A stretch of 51,152 bases of DNA from NCBI GenBank assembly GCA_009777995.1, contig WRKT01000016.1:1-51152 (forward strand), given 5' to 3'. The notes below the pieces were generated by a model that did not search any database, had not been told where the DNA came from, and was given only the letters and a program-made list of their open reading frames with translations. How positions within the stretch are numbered: position 1 is the stretch's first letter; every line of letters starts with the position of its first letter. The stretch is from Treponema sp. (GTDB taxonomy: Bacteria > Spirochaetota > Spirochaetia > Treponematales > Breznakiellaceae). Positions 2,361-48,046 of the stretch are shown here, in pieces. The translations under genes and the position numbers were made by a program.

Positions 2361-2414
2361 TCCATTATTGACAAAAATACATTATTCTGATAATGTTGCA
2401 AGGAGGGATACGAG

Positions 2415-3752: not shown

Positions 3753-3789
3753 AAACATTAATCTCAATATTACGATATTGTTTATGTTT

Positions 3790-3813
3790 AACTTGTATAC
3801 TAGTATACAAGTT
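3790..3813. promoter_or_regulatory. Perfect 24-bp palindrome AACTTGTATACTAGTATACAAGTT overlapping the stop codon of the P-loop kinase gene
   Basis: Read directly from the sequence; 12+12 with no mismatch. It overlaps the last codons and stop of the minus-strand gene 3800-4348 and is not followed by a U-tract on either strand. Either an operator-like site or an atypical terminator. Confidence 0.45.
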
Positions 3814-4887: not shown

Positions 4888-4898
4888 TATGTTCTAAG

Positions 4899-5825
4899 CT
4901 AAAACCTATACGTAAAAACAACGGCAACTCTGCGAAACTCAAGGCGCACAGGTTTATCACTATCCAAAATTCTCCCTGTATAAAAAAGATCATCCCAGTT
5001 TGATTGCAGGTAATTGCGCTGTGTGTGAAACTGCACAGCAATTCCAATATCAATTTGCCTTGTTATAGTAAAGTTAAAAATTGAAGAAAAGGTCCAGTAA
5101 ATTTTATCGTGCCCCCAAGTAGCAGGAGTCGGTGTGCCGTCAAGGTATAGGTCTCTCTCCCCTTCTGCTACAAGGGCTACCATCGAAAGGAAGATTGGCA
5201 TTTGATACCCGAGGATAAAGTTTCCGTAATAATAAAAGCTATTTCGGTTCTCCCCTGCATCGCTTAAATAATACCAAGACTCTGTAAAGGCATCGGCACG
5301 AGAATAAGCCCTATAGCTCATTTCGTGGTAGGTTCTAAAAATCACATGGTTCCAGGCTCCGGGGAAGAAGGCTGCAAGGTCTGCCTGCAGTGCACCCCCG
5401 ATAAAGCCCTTCCAGTGTATTCCGTCAAAGGCTTCTCCCCTATGCTCTCTACCACCGTCCACAAGAGGCCAATTGAATCCTATCCCGTAAATATCTTCAT
5501 CAAAAAGATTTATATTCCAGCCCGATCCGATATTACCGCCCGCATTTAATTCAAGGAATGCTATCGGAGTAAAAATGAGTTCAGTCCTGCCAATAAAATT
5601 AATTGGCGTTAGATCTGCTCCGAGTGCGAGGGTTAGATTATTACCTTCTGTAAGAGGGCTTCCTCCCTGCATGAAGGGAAAGCGGAAGCGAGTAGTAAAA
5701 CCGAGCATTACATCGATGTTGGTTGTAGCGTTAATGGAAAGCTCATGAGATGTGGTTATACCCGTTTCGGCCCAAAGAACCGCTGTAAGAAAAATCAAAA
5801 CGAAAATTAAAAAAGCTTTTTTCAC
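4899..5825 (-). CDS. Putative outer-membrane beta-barrel protein
   Basis: 308 aa. Signal peptide MKKAFLIFVLIFLTAVLWA. Aromatic-rich alternating pattern and a C-terminal ...FTYRF ending in Phe, the classical OMP C-terminal signature. No family assignable. Confidence 0.5.
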   Translation of the reverse strand: MKKAFLIFVLIFLTAVLWAETGITTSHELSINATTNIDVMLGFTTRFRFPFMQGGSPLTEGNNLTLALGADLTPINFIGRTELIFTPIAFLELNAGGNIGSGWNINLFDEDIYGIGFNWPLVDGGREHRGEAFDGIHWKGFIGGALQADLAAFFPGAWNHVIFRTYHEMSYRAYSRADAFTESWYYLSDAGENRNSFYYYGNFILGYQMPIFLSMVALVAEGERDLYLDGTPTPATWGHDKIYWTFSSIFNFTITRQIDIGIAVQFHTQRNYLQSNWDDLFYTGRILDSDKPVRLEFRRVAVVFTYRF

Positions 5826-6728: not shown

Positions 6729-7289
6729 CTAACCTTCCTTACTTATAAAACGCAAAAAATCCTCTGCCTGCTTTTCCAGAAACGGAGCACTAACCGATAG
6801 CGTAAGGTGTCCGTTTTCGTCCATTTGCTGCTTCCCATTCGGTATTAAAACGCGTGGGGCATTCATCACCCTCATATTAAGGAAGCTGATAAGGGTTACC
6901 AAATGATCTTGGGCAATGCCCGTCCCTGAAATCCCGGGCGTTATTCCGCTCAATGCGGCCGGCTTGCCCGCAAGCACCTGTCCCTCGCTCTCGTTTATAG
7001 GTCTTGAAAGCCAATCGATAAGATTTTTTAAGACTCCCGGAAAAGAGTGATTATACTCAGGTGAAAAAAACCAGAGCCCGTCAGCAGATTTAACTATCTC
7101 CCTTACCCTCTTAACTGCATCAGGAGCAGGGTATTCGATGTCCTGGTTAAAAAACGGGACATCAGAAAATTCAAGAATTTCTAACTCTGCCCTGTCTCCA
7201 AGAACCTTTCCTGCCTGCACAGCAAGTTGCCCGTTAAAGGAACCTTTTCTTAGTGAGCCTACTATAGCTACAATTTTAACTTTTTTCAT
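6729..7289 (-). CDS. NAD(P)H-dependent FMN reductase family oxidoreductase
   Basis: 186 aa. MKKVKIVAIVGSLRKGSFNGQL is the typical N-terminus of FMN_red (SsuE/ArsH/ChrR-like) flavoproteins. Stop is 2 nt from the PAP2 start. Confidence 0.75.
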   Translation of the reverse strand: MKKVKIVAIVGSLRKGSFNGQLAVQAGKVLGDRAELEILEFSDVPFFNQDIEYPAPDAVKRVREIVKSADGLWFFSPEYNHSFPGVLKNLIDWLSRPINESEGQVLAGKPAALSGITPGISGTGIAQDHLVTLISFLNMRVMNAPRVLIPNGKQQMDENGHLTLSVSAPFLEKQAEDFLRFISKEG

Positions 7290-7338
7290 TGAGTATATCT
7301 AAGTTTATAAAGACTATTTTGTCAACGCACGTTTGCGG

Positions 7339-8016
7339 TCAGCCCCGGAGGCCCTTCTTTTTATAGACCGCCACAAAGAAAATCAGGAGAATAGCCAGAT
7401 TGGCAAAAATTACAAGCAGGGGGCGATTTATGCCTGCTTCAGGGTTAAACATGAAAATAAATGTTTGATATGAGTATATAAACTCCCCGATGCGGGCAAT
7501 GTTTTCATTAACGGCGGCAATAGGCGGCATTAAGGCAAGTAAAAGCATTACGGGGGAATAAATTGCCGTTGCCTGCTGCACATTCTTTGACATAATGCCA
7601 ATTGATGCACCAAGAATTGCAGAGACAATGCAACCGGAAACGGTTATAAGAAAGAAATGAAATAAAGTGACACCGGTATATCCGCTCTGATATGCAAAGA
7701 CAGAGAGGGGAAGCAGTGACATGGATATGGCAAAAATAGCAAGACCAAAGAGATATTGAAGGGGTTTAACACCTGCAATAACAAGGAAGCGAATACTCTT
7801 ATACTCTCTGTCTTCTGCAACTGTATTGCACATTGCTATCATTGGAGTGCTTCCCACAAACATGGCGGTAAACATTGCAACAAAGGGAACGACATCCCCC
7901 ATTACCTGCCCCATTATATAAGACATTGCAGGGTATAGTATAAAGAGAAGGGTGATGGAAACATTCCTTGGCAAGTCGTTCATCTGTTTTATGAAAATCG
8001 CTCTTACTGCATTCAT
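7339..8016 (-). CDS. ABC-2 type transporter permease
   Basis: 225 aa, hydrophobic, about 6 TM. Overlaps the upstream ATPase stop by 4 nt. Confidence 0.6.
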   Translation of the reverse strand: MNAVRAIFIKQMNDLPRNVSITLLFILYPAMSYIMGQVMGDVVPFVAMFTAMFVGSTPMIAMCNTVAEDREYKSIRFLVIAGVKPLQYLFGLAIFAISMSLLPLSVFAYQSGYTGVTLFHFFLITVSGCIVSAILGASIGIMSKNVQQATAIYSPVMLLLALMPPIAAVNENIARIGEFIYSYQTFIFMFNPEAGINRPLLVIFANLAILLIFFVAVYKKKGLRG

Positions 8017-13730: not shown

Positions 13731-13789
13731 AACTGTGATATAATAATCCTTTGCACAGGTTAAAAAGACCCAAAAAAACGGAGGATTTT

Positions 13790-14605
13790 ATGAACACACA
13801 GGAAATGATGGACAGTGCCCTAAAACTGGCAGGGCTCGATAAAATGCCTGAGGATTGCGGTATTGATGTTGAGGGCAGTAATATCAAACGGGTTTTGATG
13901 GGAGTCGACATGGATACTGCCGAGCTCCTATTGGCAAAGGAACTCGGGTATGACTGTGTAGTATCACATCACCCTCGAAATACGAATCCGAATAAACTTG
14001 AAGTTCTAAACACCCATATTCATAAACTAGAGGCCCTTGGGGTGCCGAGAAATAAAGCTCAGAAAAGGCTTGAAGAGCGAAAGGAAGAGCTTCATTATAA
14101 TATGCACGTTTCAAATTCAAGACGAACCGAAAGTGCCGCGAAGCTTCTAAAAATGCCCTATATAAGCATTCACACACCTGCTGATATTATTGGCGAGGGA
14201 ATCGTGCAGAAATTCCTTGACGGAAAGTTCGCAGGGAAAAAGGATACTAAACTGCAGGAAATAGTTGATGCCCTTGAAGAAATTAGCGAATACAGGAACT
14301 CGGCAAGAAAGCCGGTAATCCGGGTCGGAAGCAAGGAGAGCTATGCAGGCAAGATATACGTTCTGATGTCGGGCCTAACGGGCCCGGGGCCGGATATTCT
14401 TAAAGAGTATTTTGAAGCAGGTGTCGGTACCCTTGTCATGATGCATATCCCTGAAAAGGACGCAAAGATAATTAAGGAGCAGAAGATAGGGAATGTTATT
14501 ATAGCAGGACATATGTCAAGCGATTCACTTGGTTTAAACAAGATAGCAGATAAGTGGAGAGAGGCAGGAGTTGAAGTAACAATGATGTCGGGAATAGTGG
14601 GTTGA
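13790..14605 (+). CDS. Nif3-like (NIF3/DUF34, YbgI family) metal-binding protein, copy 1
   Basis: GIDVEGSNIKRVLMGVDMDTAELLLAKELGYDCVVSHHP resembles the YbgI N-terminal motif (GLQVEG...GADAVIVHH), and C-terminal ...IIAGHMSSD resembles AAGHHATE. Start set at ATG 13790, after GGAGG, by analogy with the paralog. Family call is moderate. Confidence 0.55.
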   Translation: MNTQEMMDSALKLAGLDKMPEDCGIDVEGSNIKRVLMGVDMDTAELLLAKELGYDCVVSHHPRNTNPNKLEVLNTHIHKLEALGVPRNKAQKRLEERKEELHYNMHVSNSRRTESAAKLLKMPYISIHTPADIIGEGIVQKFLDGKFAGKKDTKLQEIVDALEEISEYRNSARKPVIRVGSKESYAGKIYVLMSGLTGPGPDILKEYFEAGVGTLVMMHIPEKDAKIIKEQKIGNVIIAGHMSSDSLGLNKIADKWREAGVEVTMMSGIVG

Positions 14606-15983: not shown

Positions 15984-16490
15984 ATGATAAGAGAAGCCGT
16001 CTTAGATGACAGTTCCAGAATGGCAGAAATACATGTTTTCGGCTGGAGATGCGCATACAAGGACTTCATCTCCATGGAGCATCTTGTTAACGTATTAACA
16101 GTAAAAGTCAGGGAAGAAAGATTCCGTGAATACATTTCTGACCCGAATAATAAAGACAAGATTTTGATTTGCGAAGAAAGTAATATGATAAAGGGCTTTA
16201 TGACAATAGGAGATTGCAGGGATGAAGATAAGGGGCCTGATACATACGAGCTGCATGGAATATACATAGACCCCTTATTTCAAAGGCAAGGAATTGGCAC
16301 CGAGTTTGTTAGCAGGTGCATTGAAGAAGCAAAGAATCGGGGGAAAAAAGAAATAACTTTATGGGTCTTTCAAAAGAATGAAAACTCAATTAACTTCTAC
16401 AGAAAAATGGGGTTTATACCTGACGGGAAAGTTATAGTAAAATTGGTTTATAACGAGAACGCAATAAGAATGAGGATGGAGGTAATATGA
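15984..16490 (+). CDS. GNAT family N-acetyltransferase
   Basis: 168 aa. HGIYIDPLFQRQGIGTEFVSRCIEEAKNRG...NFYRKMGF is the GNAT motif A/B. Stop overlaps the next start (ATGA). Confidence 0.8.
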   Translation: MIREAVLDDSSRMAEIHVFGWRCAYKDFISMEHLVNVLTVKVREERFREYISDPNNKDKILICEESNMIKGFMTIGDCRDEDKGPDTYELHGIYIDPLFQRQGIGTEFVSRCIEEAKNRGKKEITLWVFQKNENSINFYRKMGFIPDGKVIVKLVYNENAIRMRMEVI

Positions 16491-17302
16491 ACACACAAGA
16501 TTTAATGAATTCTGCACTGGAACTTGCGGGGCTTAAGGAAATGCCCGAAGACTGCGGAATTATCGTTCCCGGTGATAATATTAAGAAGATACTTATGGGT
16601 GTTGATATGGACACCCCTGAGCTCCTTTTGGCAAGGCAGTTGGGTTATGACTGCGTTGTATCACATCATCCAAGGAATACTAATCCGAATATGCTCGAGT
16701 TATTAAAAAGGCATATTTATAAGCTTGAAGCTCTTGGAGTGCCTCGCAATAAATCTCAGAAGCTTCTTGAAGAGAGGAGGGAAGAACTAAGTTATAATAG
16801 TCATGTTTCAAATTCAAGGCGAAGTGAGAGTGCTGCAAAGCTCCTTGGAATGCCTTTTATGTGCCTGCATACCCCGGCAGATATAATCAGCGAAGCCACA
16901 GTGCAAAAGCACCTTGACAGTAAGTTTGCAGGGAAGGTCGAAACAAAGTTACAGGAAGTACTGGATGCCCTAAATGAATTAAACGAGTATAAGAACTCTG
17001 CAAGGAAGCCGGTAATACGAGTCGGGAACAAGGAAAGTTATGCAGGGAAGATCTACGTACTTATGGCAGGACTAACGGGGCCCGGGGCCGACATTACCAA
17101 GGAGTATTTTGAAGCAGGAGTCGGTACTTTAATTCGCATGCACATAACCGAAAAAGATGCGAAAGCAGTGAAAGAGCAGAAGATCGGGAATGTGATTGTT
17201 GCAGGGCATATGTCAAGTGACTCTATCGGCCTTAATAAGATTGCACAAATGTGGAGGGGTAAGGGCATAGAGATTACGCTGATGTCAGGTATTGTGGTTT
17301 AA
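16487..17302 (+). CDS. Nif3-like protein, copy 2 (paralog of 13790-14605)
   Basis: 271 aa. About 75% amino-acid identity to copy 1 over the full length. The DNA is clearly diverged with many synonymous changes, so the duplication is old. GGAGG ribosome-binding site. Confidence 0.55.
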   Translation: MNTQDLMNSALELAGLKEMPEDCGIIVPGDNIKKILMGVDMDTPELLLARQLGYDCVVSHHPRNTNPNMLELLKRHIYKLEALGVPRNKSQKLLEERREELSYNSHVSNSRRSESAAKLLGMPFMCLHTPADIISEATVQKHLDSKFAGKVETKLQEVLDALNELNEYKNSARKPVIRVGNKESYAGKIYVLMAGLTGPGADITKEYFEAGVGTLIRMHITEKDAKAVKEQKIGNVIVAGHMSSDSIGLNKIAQMWRGKGIEITLMSGIVV

Positions 17303-33587: not shown

Positions 33588-34019
33588 CTATTTGTCAAGA
33601 TTTTCCTGCTGTGAGTGTTGTGCCATTATAACCCTATGCTTGGTAATTTCCGCAATCAAATCGTAATCTATCGGCCTATCAAGGGGAAACTGAATTGCAC
33701 CCTTTGTTGTTTTATAGGATGCAAGCTGCTTTTCAAATGGGAGCTTACCAAGATCCCCCGGATAAATACCCACATGCTTTTTAAATGCTGCGAAATGAAT
33801 CAAGTTCTCCCCCAGCCAAAAGGTGGGCATACTCCAGGAAATTTTCTCAACTGCCTTTGGTGCGGCTTTCTTAATCGTTTTACGAATCTTTTCCAGAATT
33901 GGACGGACTTCTTCCGCTTGAGCAGCAATATACTCGTCAATGTCCGATATCGTATCACTGCAATAATGGCTTTGGTTTTGCGCCTTAAAGTCTCTTCCGC
34001 ATTTAGGACACTGCCACAT
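33588..34019 (-). CDS. DUF1801 (YdhG-like) domain protein
   Basis: 143 aa. N-terminal CPKCGRDF...HYC zinc-binding knuckle, then a YdhG-like region (EEVRPILEKIRKTIKKAAPKAVEKISWSMPTFWLGENLIHFAAFKKHVGIYP). Confidence 0.5.
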   Translation of the reverse strand: MWQCPKCGRDFKAQNQSHYCSDTISDIDEYIAAQAEEVRPILEKIRKTIKKAAPKAVEKISWSMPTFWLGENLIHFAAFKKHVGIYPGDLGKLPFEKQLASYKTTKGAIQFPLDRPIDYDLIAEITKHRVIMAQHSQQENLDK

Positions 34020-34022
34020 TAT

Positions 34023-35027
34023 CTAATCCTTTTCCTTAAGTAATGCATCGTTATTGAGCACTTTGAACGAAGTTGCTTTGGGGGCCATCAAGTCGCGTAC
34101 CACGATGCCTTCTTTATCAAGGCCGCTTGGATATTTTCCCCTTGCCTTTTCAAGCAATTCTTCGAGATTATAGGCAAATTTTTCTCCCTGCTCTTCCAAT
34201 GGAACAATAGAAAGCCCAAGGTCTTTACAAACCTTGCAGGCCTCTTCATAGGGCAAATACTTATTTGAATCCCAATCCTTAACATCAAAAACAAACCATT
34301 CAATTTCGGCCATGCGCAGCTTATTTTTCTGGATCCCGGGGCCGCAAATTTCGCCTGTCAAGACCAGATTTTTTCCATAATTTGCCAATTTCTCTTTTAA
34401 ACCATATTTATAAACGGGAAGCCAATATAGAGCGCCTTCTTCGTCTTTAATTTCCTTATTTCTGCTGCAACAGCCTATTTCCCCATCAATATAATAAACT
34501 ATGCCTGACGTTCCATCCATTTTTGTCGTGATATAATAGGGTTTCCCGCTTAACTTTTCCAATAATTCCGGCTCCGACTGTATACGAATTTCATCGGAAG
34601 CAGGAATTCCGTGGGGGCGCTCCCCGATTATGGTCCCTCCGGGATTTGAGGTTTCAGGGATATACCATTTTTTTACATTGAGCTTTTCAGTAACATCTAC
34701 ACCCTCCCCCGCTCCCACCAGCTCAGGGAATTTTTCAAGGGGAAGCAATAGACCCTGAGAAAGCTGCCCTCGCATTTTAGCAGTACGGATTCTGAAGCCT
34801 TTGCCATTATCTTCATTATCCCGGTATGACGAATTGCGCAAAAATTCATACCTCTCATCTTCAGGCAAAAAGCTGTCTACTTCAAAGTAAACTCCAAGGT
34901 CGCCTTCCTTAAACTCACCCTTTTTTGCAACACATTGCCATCCAAGTACATGGGCAAGCTCCAGAAAATCAGAATCGGGAATGGTGCTTATCATCTTTAC
35001 TCTTTGTATCGTAACCAATGAACGCAT
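34023..35027 (-). CDS. ATP-dependent RNA ligase, Rnl5 family (DraRnl/NgrRnl-like)
   Basis: 334 aa. Adenylyltransferase motif I KMDGTS, with the Lys at about residue 170, is consistent with the reported position in NgrRnl/DraRnl. The N-terminal domain (VTIQRV...GWQCVAKKGEFKEGDLGVYFEVDSF...RIRTAKMRGQLSQGLLLPLEKFPEL) matches, as I recall it, the distinctive N-terminal module of that family. Confidence 0.7.
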   Translation of the reverse strand: MRSLVTIQRVKMISTIPDSDFLELAHVLGWQCVAKKGEFKEGDLGVYFEVDSFLPEDERYEFLRNSSYRDNEDNGKGFRIRTAKMRGQLSQGLLLPLEKFPELVGAGEGVDVTEKLNVKKWYIPETSNPGGTIIGERPHGIPASDEIRIQSEPELLEKLSGKPYYITTKMDGTSGIVYYIDGEIGCCSRNKEIKDEEGALYWLPVYKYGLKEKLANYGKNLVLTGEICGPGIQKNKLRMAEIEWFVFDVKDWDSNKYLPYEEACKVCKDLGLSIVPLEEQGEKFAYNLEELLEKARGKYPSGLDKEGIVVRDLMAPKATSFKVLNNDALLKEKD

Positions 35028-35119
35028 AGCATCCTCCTTACATAGAATTTTTAACTATTATATGATATAGTATTATAAAAAGATATGGTTAGAATATTAA
35101 TAGCTCAAAGGAGGAGTAA

Positions 35120-37567
35120 TTGCTTAGGGAGTTAAGTTTGAAGGTCAAACCTAATGCCAATAAAAAGTTCCTTCTATTTTCGTGTATCCTTTTACTCATT
35201 ATCTTTACCATAGCTACTTCGGCATATACAATTTCGGTTCGCCAAATAAACAGATCATATATAGAACAACAGCTCTCAATCGCGGCAGAAACCATTAGAC
35301 TTCGTCTTGCAACAACGATAAATAACGAGCTTCCTCTTGTGATGAAACTTGGTGATACTCCGGTCATTCGCCAATACTTTCTAGATCCATCTGATCCATA
35401 TCTTAGGGATCGTGCACATGCCGAATTTGAACTTTATCGAGAGCATTTTAGAACGAGGCTCATTTTCTGGATTAACGATGTTGATAAAATTTTTTATTTT
35501 ACAGGGAATGACCCGTATCTTATGGACCCTGATGATCCTGAAAACTACTGGTATAATCTTACACTTTTCCAAACCGAAACCCATAATTTAAATATTAATT
35601 ATAACCCTGAGCTTAGGCAGATTTATCTCTGGATAAATGTTCCTGTATTCTCGGAGACCGGAGTGCCGGTTGGGATGCTTGGAACCGGCATTGATCTGAC
35701 CGAATTCTCGGATTTTGTGTCTACTGCATATAGAGAATTCGACAGAAACATAACATCATATATGTTTAATAAGTTTGATGAAATTACTTCCGCTATGGAC
35801 ATTGAGCTGATGCATAATAAGGTTCGCTTAGACGATCACCTTGGAGATGCCGGAGCAGAACTTCTTATGATTTCACGCACACTAATTGATGAAGAAGTCA
35901 GTACCATCACAAGCGGAGGGATAATATATCAGTTAAGATCGATACCTGCAATGGAATGGTATCTTGCAGTGAGCTATCCGGCTCCCGGTTTTCTTTCATT
36001 AAATCAATCAATGAATACTGTGTTTTTTGGAATGCTATCTCTAATTTTGTTAATGTTCATTATAATGAACGTTTATATTCACCGCTCAGAAAATACACTG
36101 GCAGAAAATAATCTGCGATTAATTGAGGCAAATCGCATAGCAGAGTCTGCATCGCAGGCAGCGTTAGAGGCATCTCAGGCAAAAAGTGATTTCCTTGCAA
36201 ATATGAGTCATGAAATACGCACACCCATGAATGCTATTACAGGAATGTCAGAGCTTCTTCTCCGCAGAGACCTTAACGAAGATGCCCGAAGCGATGTCAG
36301 GGACATAAAACAGGCTGCAACCAGTCTTATTTCGATCATAAATGATATTCTTGACTTTTCAAAAATAGAAGCAGGCAAGCTTGAAATTATACCTGTTAAG
36401 TATATGCTTTCATTATTAGTAAACGATGTCGTTAATATAATCCGAACACGCATATTAGAAAAGCCGGTTCAACTTATTATGAAGGTCGATGAAAAAATTC
36501 CTGACAATCTTTTTGGAGACGAGGTCCGCTTACGGCAAATTATCCTTAACCTTCTTTCCAATGCTGCAAAGTTTACAGACGAGGGTCAAATAGTTTTATC
36601 AATTACTATAGAAAGCCAAAAAGGAAAGCAAGTTTTCCTAAAAATAGCTATAAGCGATACAGGGAGAGGTATCAAATCTGATCAAATAGAGAAACTTTTT
36701 TCAGATTTTATGCAGATTGATACAAGAAAGAACCGGAGCATTGAAGGGACAGGACTTGGACTTGCAATCACCAAACGGCTTTGCGACGCAATGGGCGCAA
36801 GCATTTCTGTGACAAGTGAATACGGCAAGGGCAGCATTTTTACAATAATTATGCCGCAAATAATTGACGGATACAATACATCTCCTTCATTAATAAATAA
36901 GTCTGAAAATTTTAGCATTAAAAGCATATTCCCTGACGCAAGACTTCTTATTGTAGATGATACGCCAATTAATTTAAAAGTTGCGGAAGGCCTTTTATTG
37001 CCCTATAAAGCAAAAATTGACACTTGCCTAAGCGGAGAAGAGGCAATTGAGATAATTAAACAAAGGCAGGGCGAGCAAGCTTACGATCTCGTTTTCATGG
37101 ATCACATGATGCCTGAAATGGACGGCATTGAAACTACCGCCGCAATCAGAGCTTTGGGAGTGCAAGTGCCAATAATAGCATTAACCGCAAATGCAGTATC
37201 CGGAATGAGAGAAATGTTTTTGGAAAAAGGATTTAACGATTTTCTTGCCAAACCAATTGATGTCTCTAAACTTGACGAAATACTTAGTAACTGGGTCACA
37301 AGTAAGAAGAGAGACTCGCAATTCGGCAATTCCGACATAATTGAAGACATAAATTCTTTAGTAGAAGAATTAAAAAAATTACAAATAGCCTGTGAGGATT
37401 ATAATGCAAAATCTGCATATTCAATACTTGATATCATAAATGAAAAAGAGTGGAAGCCTGAAACAATTACTGCAATAAAAGAAATCCGGAATGCATTATT
37501 ACATAAAGATTTCGCAGGCACCTGTAAACTGATTGATGTCTTAATTGAAAATAAGAAGGCTTCATGA
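35120..37567 (+). CDS. Hybrid sensor histidine kinase (periplasmic Cache-like sensor, HisKA, HATPase_c, REC)
   Basis: 815 aa. TM, a roughly 260 aa extracytoplasmic domain, TM, H-box [13 protein letters not shown] boxes ([23 protein letters not shown]), receiver (LLIVDD...[14 protein letters not shown]...KP), and a roughly 100 aa helical tail. TTG start with AAAGGAGGA ribosome-binding site. Confidence 0.85.
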
Positions 37568-40500
37568 AATCGCGACCGGTATTTACTATAAAATTGATAG
37601 TCCCTTTGCTTTATACCGTCGCCATTATTGCTTTAGTCTTATATCAGTGGAATGAGCAAACAATTACAGTTAGACAAGGCGGCTCTAATCCATTATACCG
37701 CAACCTCATGGACTATCCTGCCTATATCCGGCATGGGTTTGATGTGTCAGATACCATTAGGATTCCACAGGAAAACAGCACATGGTTTCGTTTTTCTGCT
37801 CCTCAGCTAAGGATAATCAATTCTCCTCTGCCCGATCTTCCGCAAAGGACCTTCCTTTCAATTCGCGGCAGGGAAGCAGAGGAATTTACAATTATCATAC
37901 CCATAGAGTTTGACTCAACTGCATTGACTTCGGGAATTGAACCGGGGATTTATCTTGGTTATATAGGCGAGAACTGGGAGGTATACTTAAACGGACACCT
38001 CGTACAAAGACAAATGCACTTAAACGAGGCAGGTCAAATTATAAGCCGCAGGAACTGGAGAGGGGTACATTTCCCCTTTTCAGGCAGCATATTACTTGAA
38101 GGAACAAATATACTTGCTTTCAGAATCATTGGCGATCCTACATACGGTGTTACAGGGTTATATTACTCATCACCTTATTATATAGACGATTATAGTATAA
38201 TTAAACGACGACACCTTGATATTCTCTCTATGATTCTATGCGGCATTTTTGGCTATACAGGATTATATTACATGATAATCTTTCTTTCTGTAAGAAAGAA
38301 AAATGAGCTTTATAATCTTTATTATAGTATTTCTTCCATTATACTGTGTATTTATACGCTCATGTTCAGCGGAATAATAAATAATATAATTCCTAATTCA
38401 GATATAACGATTCGACTTGAATATGTATCATTATTTATGCTTGTTCCAATGCTCGGCTGTTTTATCGAGCATTTCGGAGCACAGAAAATAACAAAAATAA
38501 CGAGAGGTTTCCTCATTTTCTACGGATCATTGAGTCTGGCACAGATCTTTTTTAGCACCCAATTCGGCGATGACATTTTAATGATTTGGAGCGCCTCCGT
38601 TTTAATCTATTTTTCTTACATTTTCTTTTTTAATATAACGCGATACTATATCCGCAGAAGACGCAAAGAAAACATCGATACCTTAATAAGCAATATCCTT
38701 ATTGGCCTTGTGGTAGTCTACCTCTGTGGTATTTATGATGTTTTGGACATAATATTTTTCCATAATTCATCGAGCTTATTTTTATACAGCACCTTTATAT
38801 TCCACTTGGGCATGGCAATAACCCTATCGCAACGGTATCAGGAAATGTATGGTCAATTGGAAGAATCGAATATCATACTTGAAGAAAGAGTCCAAGAACG
38901 TACTTTGGAACTGGAAGAGCAGACAGCTATAGCTCTTGAAGCTTCAAAAGCGAAAAGTAATTTTCTTGCAATAATGAGCCATGAAATCCGCACCCCATTA
39001 AACGCAGTAATCGGTTTTTCGGAGATAGAACTTCGCAATGATCTTCCGTCTTCAATAAGAGAAAGCTTTACTCATATTCATCGATCAGGCTCCTTCCTTC
39101 TAGGAATAATAAATGAAATACTTGATATCTCCAAAATTGAATCAGGTAAACTCGATTTAATAAATGATGAATACGAAACTGCAAGCCTCCTAAGCGGAAC
39201 CATAAGCCTTAACAGGGTAAGAATTGGCGAGAAACCGATACAGTTCATCCTGGAAATAGACTCAGGGTTCCCGACAAAACTTATAGGGGACGAACTGCGA
39301 GTTAGACAAATACTTAATAATCTGCTATCCAATGCAATAAAATATACAAACGAAGGGACAGTAAAACTAGCAGCAAGCAGCGAAAAGACAGGAACCAACG
39401 AAGTCCGGATACAGTTTACGGTGACTGACACAGGCATCGGCATAGACTCGGAAAGCATGGAAAAGCTCTTCGATAATTATACACAGCTTGATACACAGGC
39501 TAATAGAAGAAACGAAGGAATCGGCCTTGGCCTTGCAATTACGAAAAGCCTTGCCGAGATGATGGGAGGCGGCATTTCTGTAGAAAGTGAATACGGCTCC
39601 GGCTCATGTTTTACTGCATGGATTATTCAGGAGCAAAATGACATAGAGATAATCGGAGAAGAAACGGCGGAAGCCTTACGGAGCTTCAGCTATGCATTTG
39701 ATATAAACCCTGAAAGTTCTATTCAGGAAAGAAACCAAATTGAATCAATTGATATACCTGAAGGCAGGATTTTGGTAGTAGATGATATACCTGAAAACCT
39801 GCTTGTCGTAAGAGGGTTCTTAAAACCTTATGGTCTTCAAATAGATACAGCAGGGTCAGGAAGGGAGGCCATTGAACTTATAGAGAAGACTAATATTTCC
39901 GGAGAAAGCTATCATCTTATTTTTATGGATCATATGATGCCCGAGATGGATGGCGTTGAAACCTTAAAAAATATCAGAAAATTAGGTGTCGAGACACCTA
40001 TGATCATTCTAACATCAAATGCATTAAGGGGCATGAATGAATTTTATATGGAACATGGGTTTCAAGATTACCTTTCAAAACCAGTAAACCCTAATGAGCT
40101 GGATAGTGTTTTAAGGAAATGGCTTATTAATGATAACTCCTCAATAGATGATAATATCAATTTTACTACTGCACTAAACACACAAAGACTGGATAAACTA
40201 AACCATTTTCGCTTTGCCTTTGATTCAGGTAGAGATATCGAACCTGCATTTTTTAAGAGATTTAACGCTTTAATTCAGACACTCAGAACAGTTAACAATG
40301 AGCTTGCAGAAGCTCTGATTGAAGCAGGAAATAATGAAGATGCCAAAAAGATCCGTGAAATACTTCCGGATTTTTTTAACATAATGGAGAATCAATTAAT
40401 AGAAAGCAGAAATAGGAGAATAGAGGAATTCGATTTTTTAGAAATTCTAAAGCGCATAAAAAAATTGATTGAAGATGATGAAATTACCGAAGCCGGGAAA

Positions 40501-40635
40501 ATATTAAAAGATATTGGGATGATGAACTTAAACCAAGAAGAACGAGACCTATACTTTATCCTATACGATTCCTTAATGGAAGATAAACTCGAAAAAACCA
40601 TCGAAGATATAGATAAGTTTTTAATGCAAGCATGA
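37564..40635 (+). CDS. Hybrid sensor histidine kinase with 7TMR-DISM (7TM receptor with extracellular DISMED2-like domain) input
   Basis: 1023 aa. Signal/TM, a roughly 190 aa extracellular domain, 7 TM helices, H-box [11 protein letters not shown], HATPase ([23 protein letters not shown]), receiver (ILVVDD...[14 protein letters not shown]...KP), and a roughly 270 aa C-terminal helical region without a recognisable Hpt HxxKG motif. ATGA overlap with the upstream kinase. Confidence 0.85.
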
Positions 40636-42770: not shown

Positions 42771-43754
42771 ATGGCTTTTTGTACAAACTGCGGGGCAGAT
42801 GCTAAAGATATTAATTTTTGCCCAAAATGCGGGACCCGGGTGGGCAATGCACCGGCGGCTGCACCGGAGCCGGCTGCTCAAGCGGCACCCCAACCACGGA
42901 CTGTAACAGTCGGGCAGGTAAGAAAATGCCCATCCTGCGGCTCTCCGATTGAATCCTTTCAATCCAGATGCGGTGCCTGTGGTCATGAGATCAACTCTGC
43001 AGGGGTATCGGAGGCCATAAAAGAGTTTACCACGCAGATCAATTCTCTTGATGAAAAGATTGCAAGAGAAAAGGTGGTGCCTGAGAAAAAATCTTCCTCT
43101 TCTTCATCCAAGATGCCCAAAATGTCCAAGAGAACCCAAAGGTCCCTTGTAAGAACAGGCACTGCAGGTGTTGCAGGTGCTGTAATTAGCTCTACCCTTA
43201 CAAGCTCGAGTAGTAATAAATCCGGATCAGGCTCGGGAAAATCTGTTGTAGGAGGCTTCCTGCTTATAGGCTTCTTTGTAGGCGTTATTGCGCTAATCGT
43301 AAAAATTACAAAGAATTTCAGGAACGCAATCGCACGCCCTGTAATGTCACCATCGGAGAAGGTGAAAAAAAGCTATATAGAAAATTTTGTTGTACCAAAC
43401 ACCAGAGAAGACATGCTGGAATTTGTTCTCCTTGCATCATCAAAAGCTGAAAGCGTTATAGAACTCGGGTCAGGCGAAACAATGGGTGAAATATCAAGCG
43501 CACATTATTGGGCAAAGGTATGGGAGAACAAGTGCAGAAAGGTCGAAGACAGGGCCCTTATAGCCTTGCAGGGCGATTCCCAGACCCTTAGCCAAATCAA
43601 AAGCTTCCATGACAGATCAAAGGAAAAATTCTTAACAATTACAAAGGCAAAAAAGAAGGGGCAAGTTAAATCCATCATCCTCTTCATATTTATGCTTACC
43701 TTAATCGTAATAGTAACTTTATTCATCTTATTTTTATTGCTCATGTTTATTTAA
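42771..43754 (+). CDS. Double zinc-ribbon membrane protein (YdjG/TcaA-like architecture)
   Basis: 327 aa. Two zinc ribbons (CTNCGADAKDINFCPKCG and CPSCGSPIESFQSRCGACGHE), an Ala/Pro-rich linker, a Ser-rich low-complexity stretch, a TM helix (GFLLIGFFVGVIALIV), a soluble region, and a C-terminal TM helix. Confidence 0.6.
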   Translation: MAFCTNCGADAKDINFCPKCGTRVGNAPAAAPEPAAQAAPQPRTVTVGQVRKCPSCGSPIESFQSRCGACGHEINSAGVSEAIKEFTTQINSLDEKIAREKVVPEKKSSSSSSKMPKMSKRTQRSLVRTGTAGVAGAVISSTLTSSSSNKSGSGSGKSVVGGFLLIGFFVGVIALIVKITKNFRNAIARPVMSPSEKVKKSYIENFVVPNTREDMLEFVLLASSKAESVIELGSGETMGEISSAHYWAKVWENKCRKVEDRALIALQGDSQTLSQIKSFHDRSKEKFLTITKAKKKGQVKSIILFIFMLTLIVIVTLFILFLLLMFI

Positions 43755-43772
43755 ATACACAGGAGGAGTGTT

Positions 43773-45260
43773 ATGCCAATTTTCGGAAACAAGGACAAAT
43801 CAAACAAGGGCGGCGCATTTGCCGACATGATTATGAGCCCCGAGCAGAATAGGGATTGGCTCATTTACAAATGGCGGCCCGAGGGGGAAGAAGCAGGAAG
43901 TACAAGACGTGAAAATTCCATCCGCTATTCTTCGGGTCTTACGGTTAGACAGGGGGAAGTCGCTGTTTTCCAGTATGCAGGGACAGTTCCCGGCGGAAGT
44001 CAGGATTATATCGAAGGTTACTATAGCGATTCCATCAAAACAGCAAACCTTCCGATCCTTGCAAACATAGTTGGTGCTGCTTACGGAGGAGGCACTCCAT
44101 TTGCTGCCCAAGTTTATTTCATCAACCTTGCAGGTGTAAATCAGGTGCAATTCGGTGTTCCATATTTTAACATGTTCGATCCACGTCTTCCCGATCATCC
44201 TGTCGAGGTAACTGTTCGGGGAACCATCACTTTTAAAATAGTCGATTATGTAAACTTTGTTAACTTACAGTCTCTTGTCGATTTTGACATGAGTAAATTC
44301 AGCAACCAGGTGAAAAATGCTATCATCGACAATGTAAGAAATACAATGATGGACATTATGGTGAAGCTCGGACGGCCCCTTGCTCAAATCGAAACCTATA
44401 GGCGCGAGATAAAGGCAATTCTGGAGCCGGATTTGATGGCAAACTTGCTGAATATCTATGGTGTTACAATAGTGGATCTAAACCTTGCAGCCATAGAAAT
44501 CAACAAAGAATGTGAAGGGTATCAGAAGATGGCCAAGCTTACCCAAGTACAGGCAGAAACTCAGATCGAACTTGGTGCCCAGGGAATGAGAGATCAGTAT
44601 GCAATAAATATGCAGACTAACGCTGCGATGGCTGCTGCACAGGTTGAAAACCAGGCGGAGGCAATGCGCATTAATCGTGAGGAAAACCAATACGCCCAGA
44701 GAATGCAGACAGACCTTGGCGGTATGGAACTGCACAGGCTCAGGGCGCAGACAGAAATGGTTAGTGCAACTGCAGCCGGAATGGGTGCTATGGGCGCAGG
44801 TGGTTCCGGAGGCGGCGGCCTTAACCCGGGCGCGATGGTCGCAGGGATGGCAATGGGCAGCACTGTCGGACAGAGTATGGCCGGCATGATGGGCAACGCG
44901 CTTAACAATATGAACCAACAGATGCCGGGTATGACACCTCCGGGCTTACCGCCGCAGGGAGCTCCGCCGCCGATACCGGGTGCAGCCGCACCCCCGCCCC
45001 CGGGAGCTCCGGTTGCAGCACCGCCAAGCTTAATGTTCAGCGTTTCAGTGGACGGGCAAGTATACGGCCCGTTCGACATGAATGCCCTTGTTCAAATGGC
45101 AGGCGCAGGCCAAATAAACGCCCAAAGCATGGTATGGAGAGAGGGGATGCCTGCTTGGCAACAGGCAGGAGCTGTACCTGAGCTTGCCGCACTATTCGCA
45201 GGTGCTTCGCCTCCGTCGCCTCCGCCGCCTCCTCTTCCCGGAGGAAATCATGGGCTCTAA
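43773..45260 (+). CDS. SPFH-domain protein of the Band_7_1 / YdjI (so-called virion-core-protein-like) type, with C-terminal polyproline tract and GYF-like (DUF4339) domain
   Basis: 495 aa. The N-terminal roughly 260 aa match the YdjI-type SPFH pattern (LIYKWRPEGEE...TVRQGEVAVFQYAG...YFINLAGVNQVQFGVPYFNMFDP...TVRGTITFKIVDYVNF). Then a Q/A/M-rich coiled region, a G/A/M-rich stretch, the polyproline PPGLPPQGAPPPIPGAAAPPPPGAPVAAPP, and a terminal domain FSVSVDGQVYGPFDMNALVQMAGAGQINAQSMVWREGMPAWQQAGAVPEL. Confidence 0.7.
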   Translation: MPIFGNKDKSNKGGAFADMIMSPEQNRDWLIYKWRPEGEEAGSTRRENSIRYSSGLTVRQGEVAVFQYAGTVPGGSQDYIEGYYSDSIKTANLPILANIVGAAYGGGTPFAAQVYFINLAGVNQVQFGVPYFNMFDPRLPDHPVEVTVRGTITFKIVDYVNFVNLQSLVDFDMSKFSNQVKNAIIDNVRNTMMDIMVKLGRPLAQIETYRREIKAILEPDLMANLLNIYGVTIVDLNLAAIEINKECEGYQKMAKLTQVQAETQIELGAQGMRDQYAINMQTNAAMAAAQVENQAEAMRINREENQYAQRMQTDLGGMELHRLRAQTEMVSATAAGMGAMGAGGSGGGGLNPGAMVAGMAMGSTVGQSMAGMMGNALNNMNQQMPGMTPPGLPPQGAPPPIPGAAAPPPPGAPVAAPPSLMFSVSVDGQVYGPFDMNALVQMAGAGQINAQSMVWREGMPAWQQAGAVPELAALFAGASPPSPPPPPLPGGNHGL

Positions 45261-45615
45261 TACAGGCTTTTCAATGGACAGACTTTTAGAATTTGGCATG
45301 AATGCCGCAGTCGCAGGTCAGGTTATGCGTAACATGAACCAAACAATGAGCGAAACAATGCAACCTTGGCCTGCTTCGATGAAGGGGCCCGGAACAACCA
45401 TGCCTCCATCACATCTATATTATGTTGCTCTTGACGGTAAACAGGCGGGGCCTTTTTCCGAGACCGAGATTATAAGGCTTGTGAACGAAAAAAGGATCAC
45501 AAAGGATACATTGGTTTGGCATCAGGGGATGCCTGCTTGGAAGCGAGCTGAAGACCTGCCCGAGATGCTTCGTATAATTGCACTTGCACCTCCGCCGCTT
45601 AATGTTATCGCATAA
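45250..45615 (+). CDS. Small stand-alone GYF-like (DUF4339) domain protein
   Basis: 121 aa from ATG 45250 (GGAGG ribosome-binding site; overlaps the upstream stop). YYVALDGKQAGPFSETEIIRLVNEKRITKDTLVWHQGMPAWKRAEDLPEM, then PPPL at the C-terminus. The track start at 45184 is an alternative start codon in the same frame. Confidence 0.6.
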   Translation: MGSNTGFSMDRLLEFGMNAAVAGQVMRNMNQTMSETMQPWPASMKGPGTTMPPSHLYYVALDGKQAGPFSETEIIRLVNEKRITKDTLVWHQGMPAWKRAEDLPEMLRIIALAPPPLNVIA

Positions 45616-45624
45616 GAAGATTCT

Positions 45625-47208
45625 ATGGCAAAGAGAAGAAATACCGGCGGTACGAGAGTGATGCGGCTTACACAACAACAGATGATGATGATGGGGATGG
45701 GCGCTATGATTCGACCTAATATCAGGAGCAGAGGCATACAAGCCAAGGCGCCTCAACAGGAGCAGAGGCTTTTCTATGCTGTGCTCGACGGCAGACAGGC
45801 AGGGCCTTTTTCCATCGCAGAAATGTCACAGCTAATAAGTCAAGGAAGTATCGCAAGAGAAAGCCTTGTGTGGAAACAGGGAATGTCTGCATGGCAGCAG
45901 GCCCATATTACCCCTGAGATTATGATGCTTTTCCCGCAATCTGCAGTACCACCGGTAGGATCATTGCCGCCGCCTCCTCGCCCTATGCCACCTCAATCCA
46001 TGCCTCCGCCGCCAAAGCAGACCTGGGAGCATTACTATCTTCCGATAGAAGGCATCCTGAACGAATGCCCGGTTAACGAAGAAGATCATGAAGAAAATAT
46101 TTCTGCTGAAACGCAGGAGCAAGCTGCAATGATTCTGGAGATCTTAGCTGATTTCAGAATTGAAGCAGAAGTCACAGGAATTATCCGCGGGCCTGTAGTT
46201 ACAATGTACGAGATACTCCCTGCAGCAGGGGTTAAACTGTCAAAGATATCCGAGCTTGAAAACAATATCGCCTTGCGTCTTGCAGCTAAATCCCTTAGGA
46301 TACTTTCTCCCATTCCGGGGAAAAATGCAGTTGGTATTGAAGTACCAAACAGGAAACGCGAACTTGTAAGTTTTAGGAAAACTATTGAAAATTGCTTTGA
46401 GGGATATACTGCACATTCTCAAAAAGCTTTACCGGTATTTTTAGGAAAAACAATTACGGGTGATATTTTATCAGCTGATCTTGCTACAATGCCGCATCTC
46501 CTTGTAGCAGGTACAACAGGCTCAGGCAAGTCGGTGTGCATCAATTCTATTATCCTTTCGCTTCTTTACCTGTTTACTCCTGATCAATGCAGAATGATAT
46601 TTATTGATCCGAAGATTGTCGAGTTAAAATTCTACGATGGGATTCCCCATCTGATTACCCCCGTTATACATGAGAGTGAAGGTGCTCTCAGGGCTCTTCG
46701 CTATTGTGTCAGCGAAATGGAAAGGCGTTATGATGTGCTTGGCAAGGCTTCTGCAAGAAACACCAAATCGTTTAATAAAAATGCCGAAGAGAAGGGCTCA
46801 CCTCTTTTACCCTATTGGGTTGTTATAATTGATGAGTATGCAGACCTTATGGCAGTTTCAGGCAAGGAAACCGAAGGGCTCATAGCTCGACTTGCAGCAA
46901 AAAGCCGTGCTGTCGGCATCCACTTAATTCTTGCAACTCAAAGGCCGTCAACGAATGTGATCACGGGAATCATAAAGGGCAATATACCTGCACGCATCGC
47001 CTTTATGGTTGCATCTAACAATGACAGCCGAATAATTCTCGACTCATCAGGTGCAGAAAAGCTTCTTGGCAAAGGTGACATGCTCTACTCAAGTAATGAT
47101 GCACCGTTTCCAATTCGTGCACAAGGCGCTTATGTCTGCGAAGATGAGGCAGAGAAAGCCGCGACACATCTCAGGAGTCTTGGAAGGCCTGAATATGTGG
47201 ATATATAA
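45625..47208 (+). CDS. FtsK/SpoIIIE-family motor ATPase (alpha+beta domains only) with N-terminal GYF-like domain and polyproline tract; no TM anchor, no gamma domain
   Basis: 527 aa. Residues about 49-100 FYAVLDGRQAGPFSIAEMSQLISQGSIARESLVWKQGMSAWQQAHITPEI; polyPro PPVGSLPPPPRPMPPQSMPPPPKQ. Residues about 130-527 align along their length with the E. coli FtsK motor: Walker A PHLLVAGTTGSGKSV, MIFIDPK, GIPHL, Walker B VVIIDEYADL, ATQRPS, IPARIAF, GKGDMLY. The protein ends GRPEYVDI, exactly where the FtsK gamma domain would begin. Confidence 0.8.
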   Translation: MAKRRNTGGTRVMRLTQQQMMMMGMGAMIRPNIRSRGIQAKAPQQEQRLFYAVLDGRQAGPFSIAEMSQLISQGSIARESLVWKQGMSAWQQAHITPEIMMLFPQSAVPPVGSLPPPPRPMPPQSMPPPPKQTWEHYYLPIEGILNECPVNEEDHEENISAETQEQAAMILEILADFRIEAEVTGIIRGPVVTMYEILPAAGVKLSKISELENNIALRLAAKSLRILSPIPGKNAVGIEVPNRKRELVSFRKTIENCFEGYTAHSQKALPVFLGKTITGDILSADLATMPHLLVAGTTGSGKSVCINSIILSLLYLFTPDQCRMIFIDPKIVELKFYDGIPHLITPVIHESEGALRALRYCVSEMERRYDVLGKASARNTKSFNKNAEEKGSPLLPYWVVIIDEYADLMAVSGKETEGLIARLAAKSRAVGIHLILATQRPSTNVITGIIKGNIPARIAFMVASNNDSRIILDSSGAEKLLGKGDMLYSSNDAPFPIRAQGAYVCEDEAEKAATHLRSLGRPEYVDI

Positions 47209-47224
47209 AAGATAAGAGGTAAAA

Positions 47225-48046
47225 GTGAAGAGAGTGGTTGTTTTGTTGGTAGTTTGTTTACTCTTTGTGGGGTGTAACAGGAATCCTTTGACCGGTCAGA
47301 GGACTATAGCTCTTGTTAGTAACAACACACTTTTTCCTATGGCGTTTCAGCAATATGAAGATTTTTTGAATGAAAACACATTGGTAACAGGAACTGCAGA
47401 AGCAGAAATGGTAAGACGGGTGGGAGACAGAATCAGGCTGGCAGCGGAAAGCCTCCTGGCTGCCGAAGGTCATGAAAATTATCTGGATGATTATCAATGG
47501 GAGTATCATTTAGTTCAGAGTAATGAAGTTAATGCATGGGTTATGCCGGGTGGTAAGATTGTTATCTATACCGGCATACTCCCGCTGGCAGGCAACGAAG
47601 ACGGCCTTGCGGTGATCATGGGGCACGAAGTTGCCCATGCGATACTTAACCATGGGCAGCAAAGAATGAGTGCAAGCCTGCTTCGAGAAATTGGCAGGTT
47701 GGGTATTTCCATTGGCGCTTCACTCCTGGATCTTCCTTCCGACACTCAAAGATTGATCCTGGCTGCCTACGGTGTTGGCTCACACTTGGGTGCTATTCTG
47801 CCATTCAGCAGAAGCCATGAAAACGAAGCGGATTACTATGGTCTAATCCTAATGACAATCGCCGGTTATGACCAGAATGCGGCGGTCAGCTTCTGGGAAA
47901 GAATGGCAGCTTTGGGAGGAGGAGGTCTTGAATGGCTAAGCACCCATCCATCAAGTGAAAACAGAGCCGGTCAGCTTCAGGGTTGGATTCCCGAAACAAG
48001 AGAAATAGCTGACCAAATTAAGCTATCAATATCTTATGTACAATAA
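47225..48046 (+). CDS. M48-family (YcaL/LoiP/BepA-like) zinc metalloprotease lipoprotein
   Basis: 273 aa. Lipobox LLFVGC. NAWVMPGGKIVIYTGIL, HExxH as AVIMGHEVAHAILNH, and the third ligand region SRSHENEADYYG. This matches the periplasmic M48B pattern. GTG start. Confidence 0.8.
   Translation: MKRVVVLLVVCLLFVGCNRNPLTGQRTIALVSNNTLFPMAFQQYEDFLNENTLVTGTAEAEMVRRVGDRIRLAAESLLAAEGHENYLDDYQWEYHLVQSNEVNAWVMPGGKIVIYTGILPLAGNEDGLAVIMGHEVAHAILNHGQQRMSASLLREIGRLGISIGASLLDLPSDTQRLILAAYGVGSHLGAILPFSRSHENEADYYGLILMTIAGYDQNAAVSFWERMAALGGGGLEWLSTHPSSENRAGQLQGWIPETREIADQIKLSISYVQ

Follow-up and report, generated by a model that had tools for sequence, protein, structure and literature searches.

A Treponema gene that very probably encodes a stand-alone RNA ligase of the Rnl5 family, NgrRnl subtype

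What kind of enzyme is encoded by a 334-amino-acid (aa) open reading frame (ORF) on a Treponema contig, and does it work alone or with the genes beside it? The stretch analysed here, referred to as the window, is the 51,152-nt contig WRKT01000016.1 (assembly GCA_009777995.1) of a Treponema sp. metagenome-assembled genome. The original prediction, made from the DNA letters alone, placed an Rnl5-type RNA ligase at 34023..35027. We found the ORF on the minus strand, and its identification as Rnl5-type was upheld by an end-to-end match to the Naegleria gruberi ligase NgrRnl, by the domains, by the active site and by the predicted fold. Judged from its sequence, the protein is very probably a stand-alone, catalytically competent ATP-dependent polynucleotide ligase of the Rnl5 family, NgrRnl subtype. 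The gene and its domains are located as follows.

34023..35027, minus strand: Rnl5-type ATP-dependent RNA ligase, complete coding sequence (334 aa plus TAG stop; ORF list, phmmer)
34737..35018, minus strand: Rnl5 N-terminal oligonucleotide-binding (OB) fold domain, aa 4-97 (PF21189, E=2e-37, 128 bits)
34083..34541, minus strand: nucleotidyltransferase (adenylyltransferase) domain, aa 163-315 (PF09414 RNA_ligase, E=1.1e-28; Foldseek)

A phmmer search of all PDB sequences matched residues 2-334 of the window ligase to residues 5-339 of NgrRnl (5cot_A) with E=1.3e-61, the next-best families giving only E>1e-3. The original prediction had proposed a search with the Pfam RNA_ligase model and pairwise alignments to NgrRnl and to the Deinococcus ligase DraRnl. 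The first returned PF09414 at E=1.1e-28; the second gave 40.2% identity to NgrRnl (global alignment, 328 aligned columns) and 23.6% to DraRnl. Both the PF21189 and PF09414 matches lie far above the gathering scores, and Pfam models for DNA ligases, capping enzymes and Rnl1 were all below threshold on this protein. As a calibration, NgrRnl and DraRnl were scanned in the same way and gave the same two-domain result, with PF21189 scores of 102 and 40 bits, respectively. The functional N-terminal module reaches to about aa 125, beyond the Pfam boundary at aa 97. This N-domain is a hallmark of Rnl5 that the other ligase families lack. The two N-terminal strings on which the prediction had relied were located at aa 29-53 and aa 79-103.

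The predicted structure agrees with this assignment. In an AlphaFold2 model, aa 5-96 are all-beta, and the top 13 Foldseek matches in the PDB were all NgrRnl (E 1e-32 to 1e-30, 335-341 columns), with Rnl3, Rnl2 and Rnl1 appearing at E~1e-7 (best 7e-8). The prediction had also asked whether the motif I lysine sits in an adenylyltransferase fold. The predicted fold is that of NgrRnl, and the block containing this lysine (K169) has a predicted local distance difference test (pLDDT) value of 92.

The lysine of the KMDGTS motif, predicted to lie near position 170, is residue 169 of a longer TTKMDGTS string. Four of the nucleotidyltransferase motifs were mapped to the DNA as follows.

34512..34529, minus strand: motif I, T167-T-K169-M-D171-G172 (aligned to NgrRnl Lys170/Asp172 and DraRnl Thr163/Lys165/Gly168)
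34344..34367, minus strand: motif III, LVLTGEIC with E226 (NgrRnl Glu227, which contacts the catalytic metal and the ribose 2'-OH)
34098..34112, minus strand: motif IV, E306-GIVV (NgrRnl Glu312; DraRnl Glu305 in EGVVV)
34062..34070, minus strand: motif V, S320-F-K322 (NgrRnl Lys326; DraRnl SVK326)

K169 (codon 34521..34523) is predicted to be the nucleophile that accepts AMP, and D171 to be a ligand of the catalytic metal. Motif Ia reads SR (188-189), and F247 in motif IIIa is the counterpart of the adenine-stacking NgrRnl Phe248. E306 and K322 lie 28 and 12 aa from the C terminus, leaving no C-terminal appendage; other RNA ligase families have such an appendage, and its absence after the nucleotidyltransferase domain, with the chain ending ~30 aa beyond motif IV, is the signature organisation of Rnl5 (PMC4408790, PMC1807946). 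Every defining feature of Rnl5 that can be read from sequence or structure is present in the window ligase.

Residue roles were taken from the Michaelis complex that NgrRnl forms with ATP and two Mn2+ ions (PMC7261155). Twelve ATP- or Mn2+-contacting NgrRnl residues are identical in the window ligase: Arg4 (R2), Asp53 (D51), Lys121 (K120), Asp146 (D145), Arg149 (R148), Lys170 (K169), Asp172 (D171), Arg190 (R189), Glu227 (E226), Phe248 (F247), Glu312 (E306) and Lys326 (K322). The sole change among the contacting residues is a conservative one, Thr145 to S144. In NgrRnl, Arg4, Asp53 and Lys121 of the N-domain hold the ATP gamma-phosphate and a second metal, and the E227A mutant is inert (PMC7261155). 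Across 60 diverse family members (39-56% identical to the query), D51, R148, K169, G172, E226, E306 and K322 are invariant, as are G307 and V309. The gene is also under purifying selection: the ratio of nonsynonymous to synonymous substitution rates (dN/dS) was 0.05-0.13 for unsaturated ortholog pairs. Between the window ligase itself and its relatives, the proportion of nonsynonymous differences (pN) was 0.10-0.19 and that of synonymous differences (pS) was saturated.

By homology to NgrRnl and DraRnl, the window ligase would work in three steps. In step 1, K169 would attack ATP at its alpha-phosphate, giving a covalent ligase-(lysyl-N)-AMP and freeing pyrophosphate. The catalytic divalent metal would be held through waters by D171, E226 and E306, the alpha and gamma phosphates would be gripped by K322 and R148, and the pyrophosphate leaving group would be oriented by the N-terminal OB domain (R2, K120, D51) with a second metal. 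In step 2, the AMP would be moved to the 5'-PO4 at a duplex nick, and in step 3 the 3'-OH of an RNA strand would attack the adenylylated 5' end, sealing the nick. In NgrRnl and DraRnl the N-domain is required for steps 1-2 and dispensable for step 3; both enzymes require RNA as the 3'-OH strand and favour Mn2+ (PMC1807946, PMC4408790). By analogy, the window enzyme would be expected to share their use of ATP, their metal preference and their specificity for nicks with a 3'-OH RNA strand.

Of the known ligases, NgrRnl (PDB 5COT, 5COU, 6VT0-6VTG) is the closest counterpart. It has 339 aa, against 334 here, with an N-terminal OB module, a nucleotidyltransferase domain and no C-terminal appendage, and the 40% identity runs end to end. 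Both proteins carry Asp in motif I (KxDG) and Arg in motif Ia, and the predicted fold matches. They differ in host (eukaryal for NgrRnl, bacterial for the window ligase), in short insertions or deletions within the 55-75 loop and the 255-300 region, and in Ser144 for Thr145. DraRnl (DR_B0094), whose sequence we took from the D. radiodurans megaplasmid, is the founding member of Rnl5 and the seed of TIGR02306, and has the same two-domain architecture. Its essential residues, defined in PMC1807946, are kept in the window ligase: T163, K165 and G168 of motif I, the motif III and IV glutamates E230 and E305, K326 of motif V, and Q31 and R79 of the N-domain. In contrast, DraRnl His167, Lys186 and Lys26 are replaced by D171, R189 and His26. 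Wherever NgrRnl and DraRnl differ, the window ligase sides with NgrRnl (KxDG not KxHG, Ser-Arg not Ser-Lys, His at the position of Lys26), and on these residues it is assigned to the NgrRnl subtype.

Other relatives are more distant. T4 Rnl2 and the kinetoplastid RNA-editing ligases (Rnl2) share the nucleotidyltransferase core (Foldseek E~2e-7, ~240 columns), and a shared chemistry would be expected in vitro, namely the closing of 3'-OH RNA/5'-PO4 nicks within duplexes. They have a C-terminal nick-recognition domain and lack the N-terminal OB module, and the Rnl2 model TIGR02307 scores a marginal 22 bits on the window ligase against a cutoff of 197. Phage Rnl5-like 'RNA ligase' proteins (Pfam PHA02142), such as those of Microcystis phage Mic1, Burkholderia phage BcepSauron and Aeromonas and Pseudomonas phages, are full-length, of the same architecture and 33-41% identical; they reside in viral genomes, whereas the window ligase lies among ordinary chromosomal genes.

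Several points weigh against the assignment of an active Rnl5 nick-sealing ligase. The AlphaFold2 model is only moderately confident (pLDDT 77, predicted template modelling score 0.57), and its full-length template modelling (TM) score to NgrRnl is ~0.6, with a root-mean-square deviation of ~7 A and low-confidence loops at 122-136 and 190-195; the TM score presumably reflects the placement of the two domains relative to each other. The biochemically studied relatives are all at most 50% identical to the window ligase. No physiological substrate has been established for any Rnl5 member (PMC5397189), and 3'-OH RNA specificity is unreadable from sequence because no structure of an Rnl5-nucleic acid complex defines its determinants. 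Finally, the NCBIfam equivalog model TIGR02306 (RNA_lig_DRB0094) gave 133.4 bits, below its cutoff of 151.15, and aligned to aa 6-277 only; NgrRnl and DraRnl scored 197.9 and 523.8 bits. This shortfall arises because the model was seeded on the DraRnl side and the window ligase is a divergent sequence from the NgrRnl side, and given all other tests it does not weigh against Rnl5 membership. As a side observation, TIGR02306 gives incomplete coverage of NgrRnl-like family members; JGI nevertheless labels orthologs 'TIGR02306 family'.

We turn to the question of partners. The immediate surroundings of the gene are as follows.

33588..34019, minus strand: DUF1801/YdhG-like protein of 143 aa with an N-terminal CxxC...HxC knuckle (PF08818, E=1.2e-16)
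35033..35039, minus strand: Shine-Dalgarno sequence AAGGAGG, 5 nt 5' of the ligase ATG (read directly from the sequence)
35072..35100, minus strand: promoter-like site TTAATA-17-TATAAT in the 92-nt intergenic region (consensus scan, 10/12 matches)
35120..37567 and 37564..40635, plus strand: two hybrid histidine kinases (ORF list, Pfam)

The kinase pair is divergent from the ligase, as the original prediction had said, and begins on the plus strand at 35120; the 92-nt intergenic region is common to both divergent genes. The promoter-like site is no more than a match to the pattern, and the region holds no more such sites in total than shuffled sequence would lead one to expect. GGAGG is the sole upstream element common to the spirochaete loci of orthologous ligases. 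The GC content shows no anomaly. Other flanking genes encode an ABC importer (SBP_bac_6, ABC_tran + TOBE_2, a fused permease) and a LuxR-type regulator. Pfam scans of the window, covering ~45 real ORFs, confirmed the absence of a Pnkp, Hen1 or RtcB partner and also found no RtcA-like domain; likewise no integrase, transposase or phage gene was detected. The window contains no tRNA gene and no Rfam match.

The DUF1801 gene is not convergent with the ligase, as had been claimed. It lies on the same minus strand, its ATG follows the ligase TAG after 3 nt, no terminator was found between the two genes, and they are probably co-transcribed. Does this junction represent a functional two-gene operon, analogous to the Deinococcus rnl-DR_B0095 pair? 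The strand, the short gap and the missing terminator agree with such an operon, as do a Shine-Dalgarno-like AAGGAAAAGGA within the 3' end of the ligase gene and the presence of the same junction in the closest metagenomic relative (L090). DraRnl itself, on its megaplasmid, belongs to a two-gene operon with the DEDDh-like DR_B0095 (PMC5397189). However, here the downstream gene is DUF1801/DUF5655, which is unrelated to DR_B0095, and no DEDDh-like gene was found downstream of the window ligase.

To place the junction in context we used two sets of loci. The ligase set comprised 88 loci, eight from three close orthologs and 80 from GTDB species genomes; six were duplicate assemblies of the same three places, leaving 82 distinct loci. 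None of these 82 other loci had a DUF1801 gene within 7 kb on either side of the ligase. In the reciprocal set of 80 DUF1801 loci, 46 of them with at least 900 nt of upstream sequence, a ligase adjoined the gene once, in L090, a contig of 1.2 kb. With pairing at 0/82 and 1/80 loci, DUF1801 was rejected as a functional partner of the ligase. We regard the two-gene module as highly improbable; the two genes are neighbours through an accident of gene order particular to this lineage.

The DUF1801 protein was considered in its own right. By analogy with B. subtilis YdhG/Fra, it might be a Fra/YdhG-like iron chaperone that belongs to the downstream ABC importer operon. This idea was not supported, the binding protein being adjacent in 0 of the 54 loci with enough downstream sequence. 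The protein, with its MWQCPKCG...HYC zinc knuckle, has at least 493 relatives in termite-gut metagenomes. The 80 loci of the set above (L090-L169) encode proteins 54-84% identical to it; they have no fixed neighbours, and several adjoin histidine-kinase-like genes (L115, L120).

For the ligase, neighbours were surveyed by unbiased clustering of the three genes on each side at ~80 loci, and no family recurred in more than seven. The immediate same-strand neighbours are mixed, including HtrA, threonine synthase, EF-G, SDR, YbjN, Bro-N, PIN7, HipA-like, TerD-vWA, SbcC-like, formyltransferase and DUF1576 genes. Bacterial RNA-repair cassettes (Pnkp-Hen1; RtcB-RtcA; a ligase with an end-healing enzyme) were found neither in the window nor recurrently across the ~80 loci. 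The lack of a recurrent neighbour, together with the lack of repair genes in the window, indicates that the ligase is a stand-alone gene. Single cases of neighbours typical of conflict or stress were seen: a PIN7 nuclease domain (L085:6234-6953, Lachnospiraceae), a HipA_C-like kinase (L063:8078-9238), TerD with vWA-TerF (L057:5546-6790) and an SbcC/Rad50-like ATPase (L056:4652-6961).

One Treponema sublineage has the gene for an HD-domain CCA-adding tRNA nucleotidyltransferase (cca) directly upstream of the ligase gene and in the same orientation, with gaps of 2 to ~170 nt (L001/L002/L003, L006-L008, L017, L039). The cca product has 454-484 aa and PolyA_pol, PolyA_pol_RNAbd, HD and tRNA_NucTran2_2 domains. 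The mapped tandems are as follows.

L001:6631-9005: cca-ligase tandem, 2-nt gap
L006:6537-9005: cca-ligase tandem
L017:4987-7378: cca-ligase tandem
L039:5098-7717: cca-ligase tandem

An RNase III gene (rnc) lies 0.5-1.7 kb from the ligase in seven loci, with acpP and rpmF also nearby. The tandem may point to the repair of RNA 3' ends; alternatively, the ligase may only have been inserted into a housekeeping region. On the first of these readings, the ligase and the CCA-adding enzyme would together make up a module for tRNA/RNA 3'-end repair, the two genes having become separated in the lineage of the window; the same-strand tandems and the closeness of RNase III speak for it. On the other side, cca and rnc accompany the ligase in only 6 and 7, respectively, of ~50 orthologs (at least 70% identity), all in the one sublineage; L010 and L011 carry cca downstream of the ligase and on the other strand; and the adjacency is absent from the window, from the Fibrobacterota and Bacteroidota members and from all relatives of 46-56% identity. 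Such a distribution is consistent with the ligase having entered a housekeeping cca...rnc-acpP-rpmF region in a single ancestor. With one sublineage involved and orientation varying, the CCA-adding enzyme and RNase III were rejected as a general context of Rnl5, and we think it quite unlikely that the ligase belongs to such a module.

A different arrangement recurs in ruminant and pig Treponema, whose ligases are 46-47% identical to that of the window (L070, L072, L073, L076, L078, L079, L080, L083, L084). Here an HTH_3 gene lies upstream, and the same-strand gene 3' of the ligase encodes either a calcineurin-like metallophosphoesterase (L070, L076, L078) or a 201-aa protein without a Pfam match (L072, L073, L083, L084). 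The Metallophos gene is found downstream of the ligase in one ruminant-Treponema subclade only, where the phosphoesterase beside the ligase resembles a pair of end-healing and end-sealing enzymes.

What, then, would a stand-alone ligase do? Because it would need 3'-OH/5'-PO4 ends and has no end-healing partner nearby, its likely job is the sealing of nicks with a ribonucleotide on the 3' side. Such nicks could sit in duplex RNA or in ribonucleotide-patched DNA. A rival reading keeps the enzyme and changes its cellular role: as a DNA-repair ligase, and not an RNA-repair enzyme, it would seal RNA-OH/pDNA nicks in chromosomal DNA after ribonucleotide gap filling, as proposed for DraRnl. Loss of DraRnl sensitises D. 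radiodurans to ionizing radiation, the only genetic datum for Rnl5, and nicks in ribo-patched DNA were proposed as its substrate (PMC5397189); in vitro, NgrRnl and DraRnl both ligate RNA-OH to pDNA when DNA is the template (PMC4408790). Genes for RNA end healing or for ribotoxins were not found nearby in the window, and one Fibrimonadaceae ortholog (L056) lies directly downstream of the SbcC/Rad50-like ATPase gene. Against this, no DNA-repair genes flank the window ligase, its identity to DraRnl is only 24%, and several close Treponema relatives adjoin RNA-metabolism genes (cca, rnc) rather than DNA-repair genes. We treat the DNA-repair role as a possible but less probable one; nothing in the window discriminates RNA repair from ribo-DNA repair.

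How widely is this ligase distributed? The original description of the family as sporadic in bacteria holds at the level of species, with at least 503 of 185,579 species genomes carrying a relative (a lower bound limited by the search pattern, which was built from a close alignment of 11 sequences); the family itself is very large. We counted 8,731 clusters at 50% identity (E<=1e-3), 2,548 of them at E<=1e-30, and homologs in 347 phage genomes and 34 plasmids. Rnl5 had already been reported in 2014-2015 from 35 bacterial genera in 10 phyla (PMC4408790).

Orthologs at least 70% identical to the window ligase all came from termite-gut assemblies and form a clade with a bootstrap of 100/100, whose members are 72-85% identical to it. 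The bins in this clade are labelled Treponema, Fibrobacterota, Bacteroidota, Gracilibacteraceae and Synergistales, and its loci include L018, L020, L033, L042, L044, L049, L050-L052, L056, L057 and L058. Within it the Fibrobacterota (98/100), 'Prevotellaceae' (100/100) and 'Tannerella' (100/100) bins are each monophyletic, and their copies are 76-83% identical to the best spirochaete match. Misbinning was tested as a full explanation of the non-spirochaete labels and rejected for L042, a 21-kb 'Prevotellaceae' contig on which dnaK (3129-5072) lies 1.7 kb from the ligase (6799-7803): its DnaK matches only Prevotellaceae and Bacteroidales (79-94%), and the contig is truly from Bacteroidota. Lineage-typical neighbours oppose misbinning for L056 (Fib_succ_major) and L052 (a T9SS sorting domain). 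The short 'Tannerella' contigs (L018, L020), in which GGAGG is kept, may be misbinned or recent arrivals. In the 65 nt upstream of the ATG, a GGAGG-type Shine-Dalgarno sequence is present on most spirochaete, Fibrobacterota and Firmicutes copies; the Prevotellaceae copies L033 and L042 have A/T-rich sequence only, without GGAGG, which fits adaptation to translation initiation in Bacteroidota.

The clade indicates an old inter-phylum transfer of a bare ORF. When anchored columns were compared over 160 nt on each side, DNA similarity among the loci ended exactly at the ORF boundaries, the Shine-Dalgarno sequence apart, and no flanking repeats or cassette were shared among the compared loci. No phage genome or IMG/VR contig carried a ligase more than 47% identical. 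Since similarity stops at the ORF ends and no viral contig exceeds 47%, no vehicle of transfer is visible; its direction is not established because the internal branching order of the clade is unresolved. The variation in synteny may at least partly be ordinary decay. A 'recent sweep', considered as the source of ~80% identity across different contexts, was rejected on the saturation of synonymous sites, which means that the high protein identity reflects long constraint and not recency.

Might the ligase instead be carried by a prophage or other mobile element and not belong to the chromosome's own genes? The Pfam model of its N-domain bears the name of a phage protein, homologs occur in the phage genomes and plasmids counted above, the contexts of the orthologs differ, the clade crosses phyla and a Bro-N gene precedes one ortholog (L012). 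Yet in the window the gene is flanked by an ABC importer and two-component kinases, and integrase, transposase, phage and tRNA genes are absent; conservation ends with the ORF and is not accompanied by shared repeats or a cassette; the best homologs in phages and viral contigs are only 41-47% identical; the GC content is unremarkable; and saturated synonymous divergence speaks for long residence and old divergence. A mobile cassette was rejected on the fall of column conservation to zero at the ORF ends, the Shine-Dalgarno sequence apart, and a phage vector on the 47% ceiling among phage genomes and IMG/VR contigs. We find the cargo explanation scarcely credible. For transfer of the bare gene, we put the chances at about even that a self-sufficient nick-sealing RNA ligase has been passed between Spirochaetota, Fibrobacterota, Bacteroidota and probably Firmicutes and Synergistota in the termite gut and kept by strong purifying selection. 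If true, this would point to a community-wide selective pressure, such as a shared RNA-nicking or ribo-DNA-nicking stress, toxin or phage activity.

Some features elsewhere in the window were recorded in passing.

42771-48046, plus strand: co-directional genes for a double-zinc-ribbon protein, an SPFH (Band_7_1) + GYF_2 protein, an FtsK/SpoIIIE ATPase with N-terminal GYF_2 and an M48 peptidase
1-5000: segment of GC 32-37%, against 40-50% elsewhere in the window, with genes for three GNAT acetyltransferases, an HTH_3 regulator, an MGS-like protein and a small AAA_18 kinase-like protein
13751-14605 and 16487-17302, plus strand: partial NIF3/DUF34 matches, one N-terminal and the other C-terminal, flanking a MatE transporter gene and a GNAT gene

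The common GYF_2 domains suggest that the genes at 42771-48046 form a functional module. The segment at 1-5000 may be foreign or fast-evolving, and the NIF3/DUF34 pair could be divergent paralogs or an interrupted gene.

At the level of the enzyme, these results add little. Rnl5 was defined biochemically and structurally in 2007-2020 and has thousands of homologs; the window ligase is an ordinary, correctly pre-annotated member of this already known family. The original prediction had implied rarity or novelty, which was overstated: the identical protein is already named 'RNA ligase (ATP) [Treponema sp.]' in NCBI. As no partner gene is conserved, the pathway of this lineage will not be revealed by genomic context. 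Two mildly new elements, the termite-gut clade that crosses phyla and the cca-rnl tandem confined to one sublineage, offer small leads for Rnl5 biology. Termite-gut Treponema, including the cultivable T. primitia (with a 73% identical ortholog), carry an Rnl5 of the NgrRnl subtype under strong purifying selection, and Treponema thus provides a bacterial system far nearer to NgrRnl than Deinococcus in which to study the physiological substrate of Rnl5.

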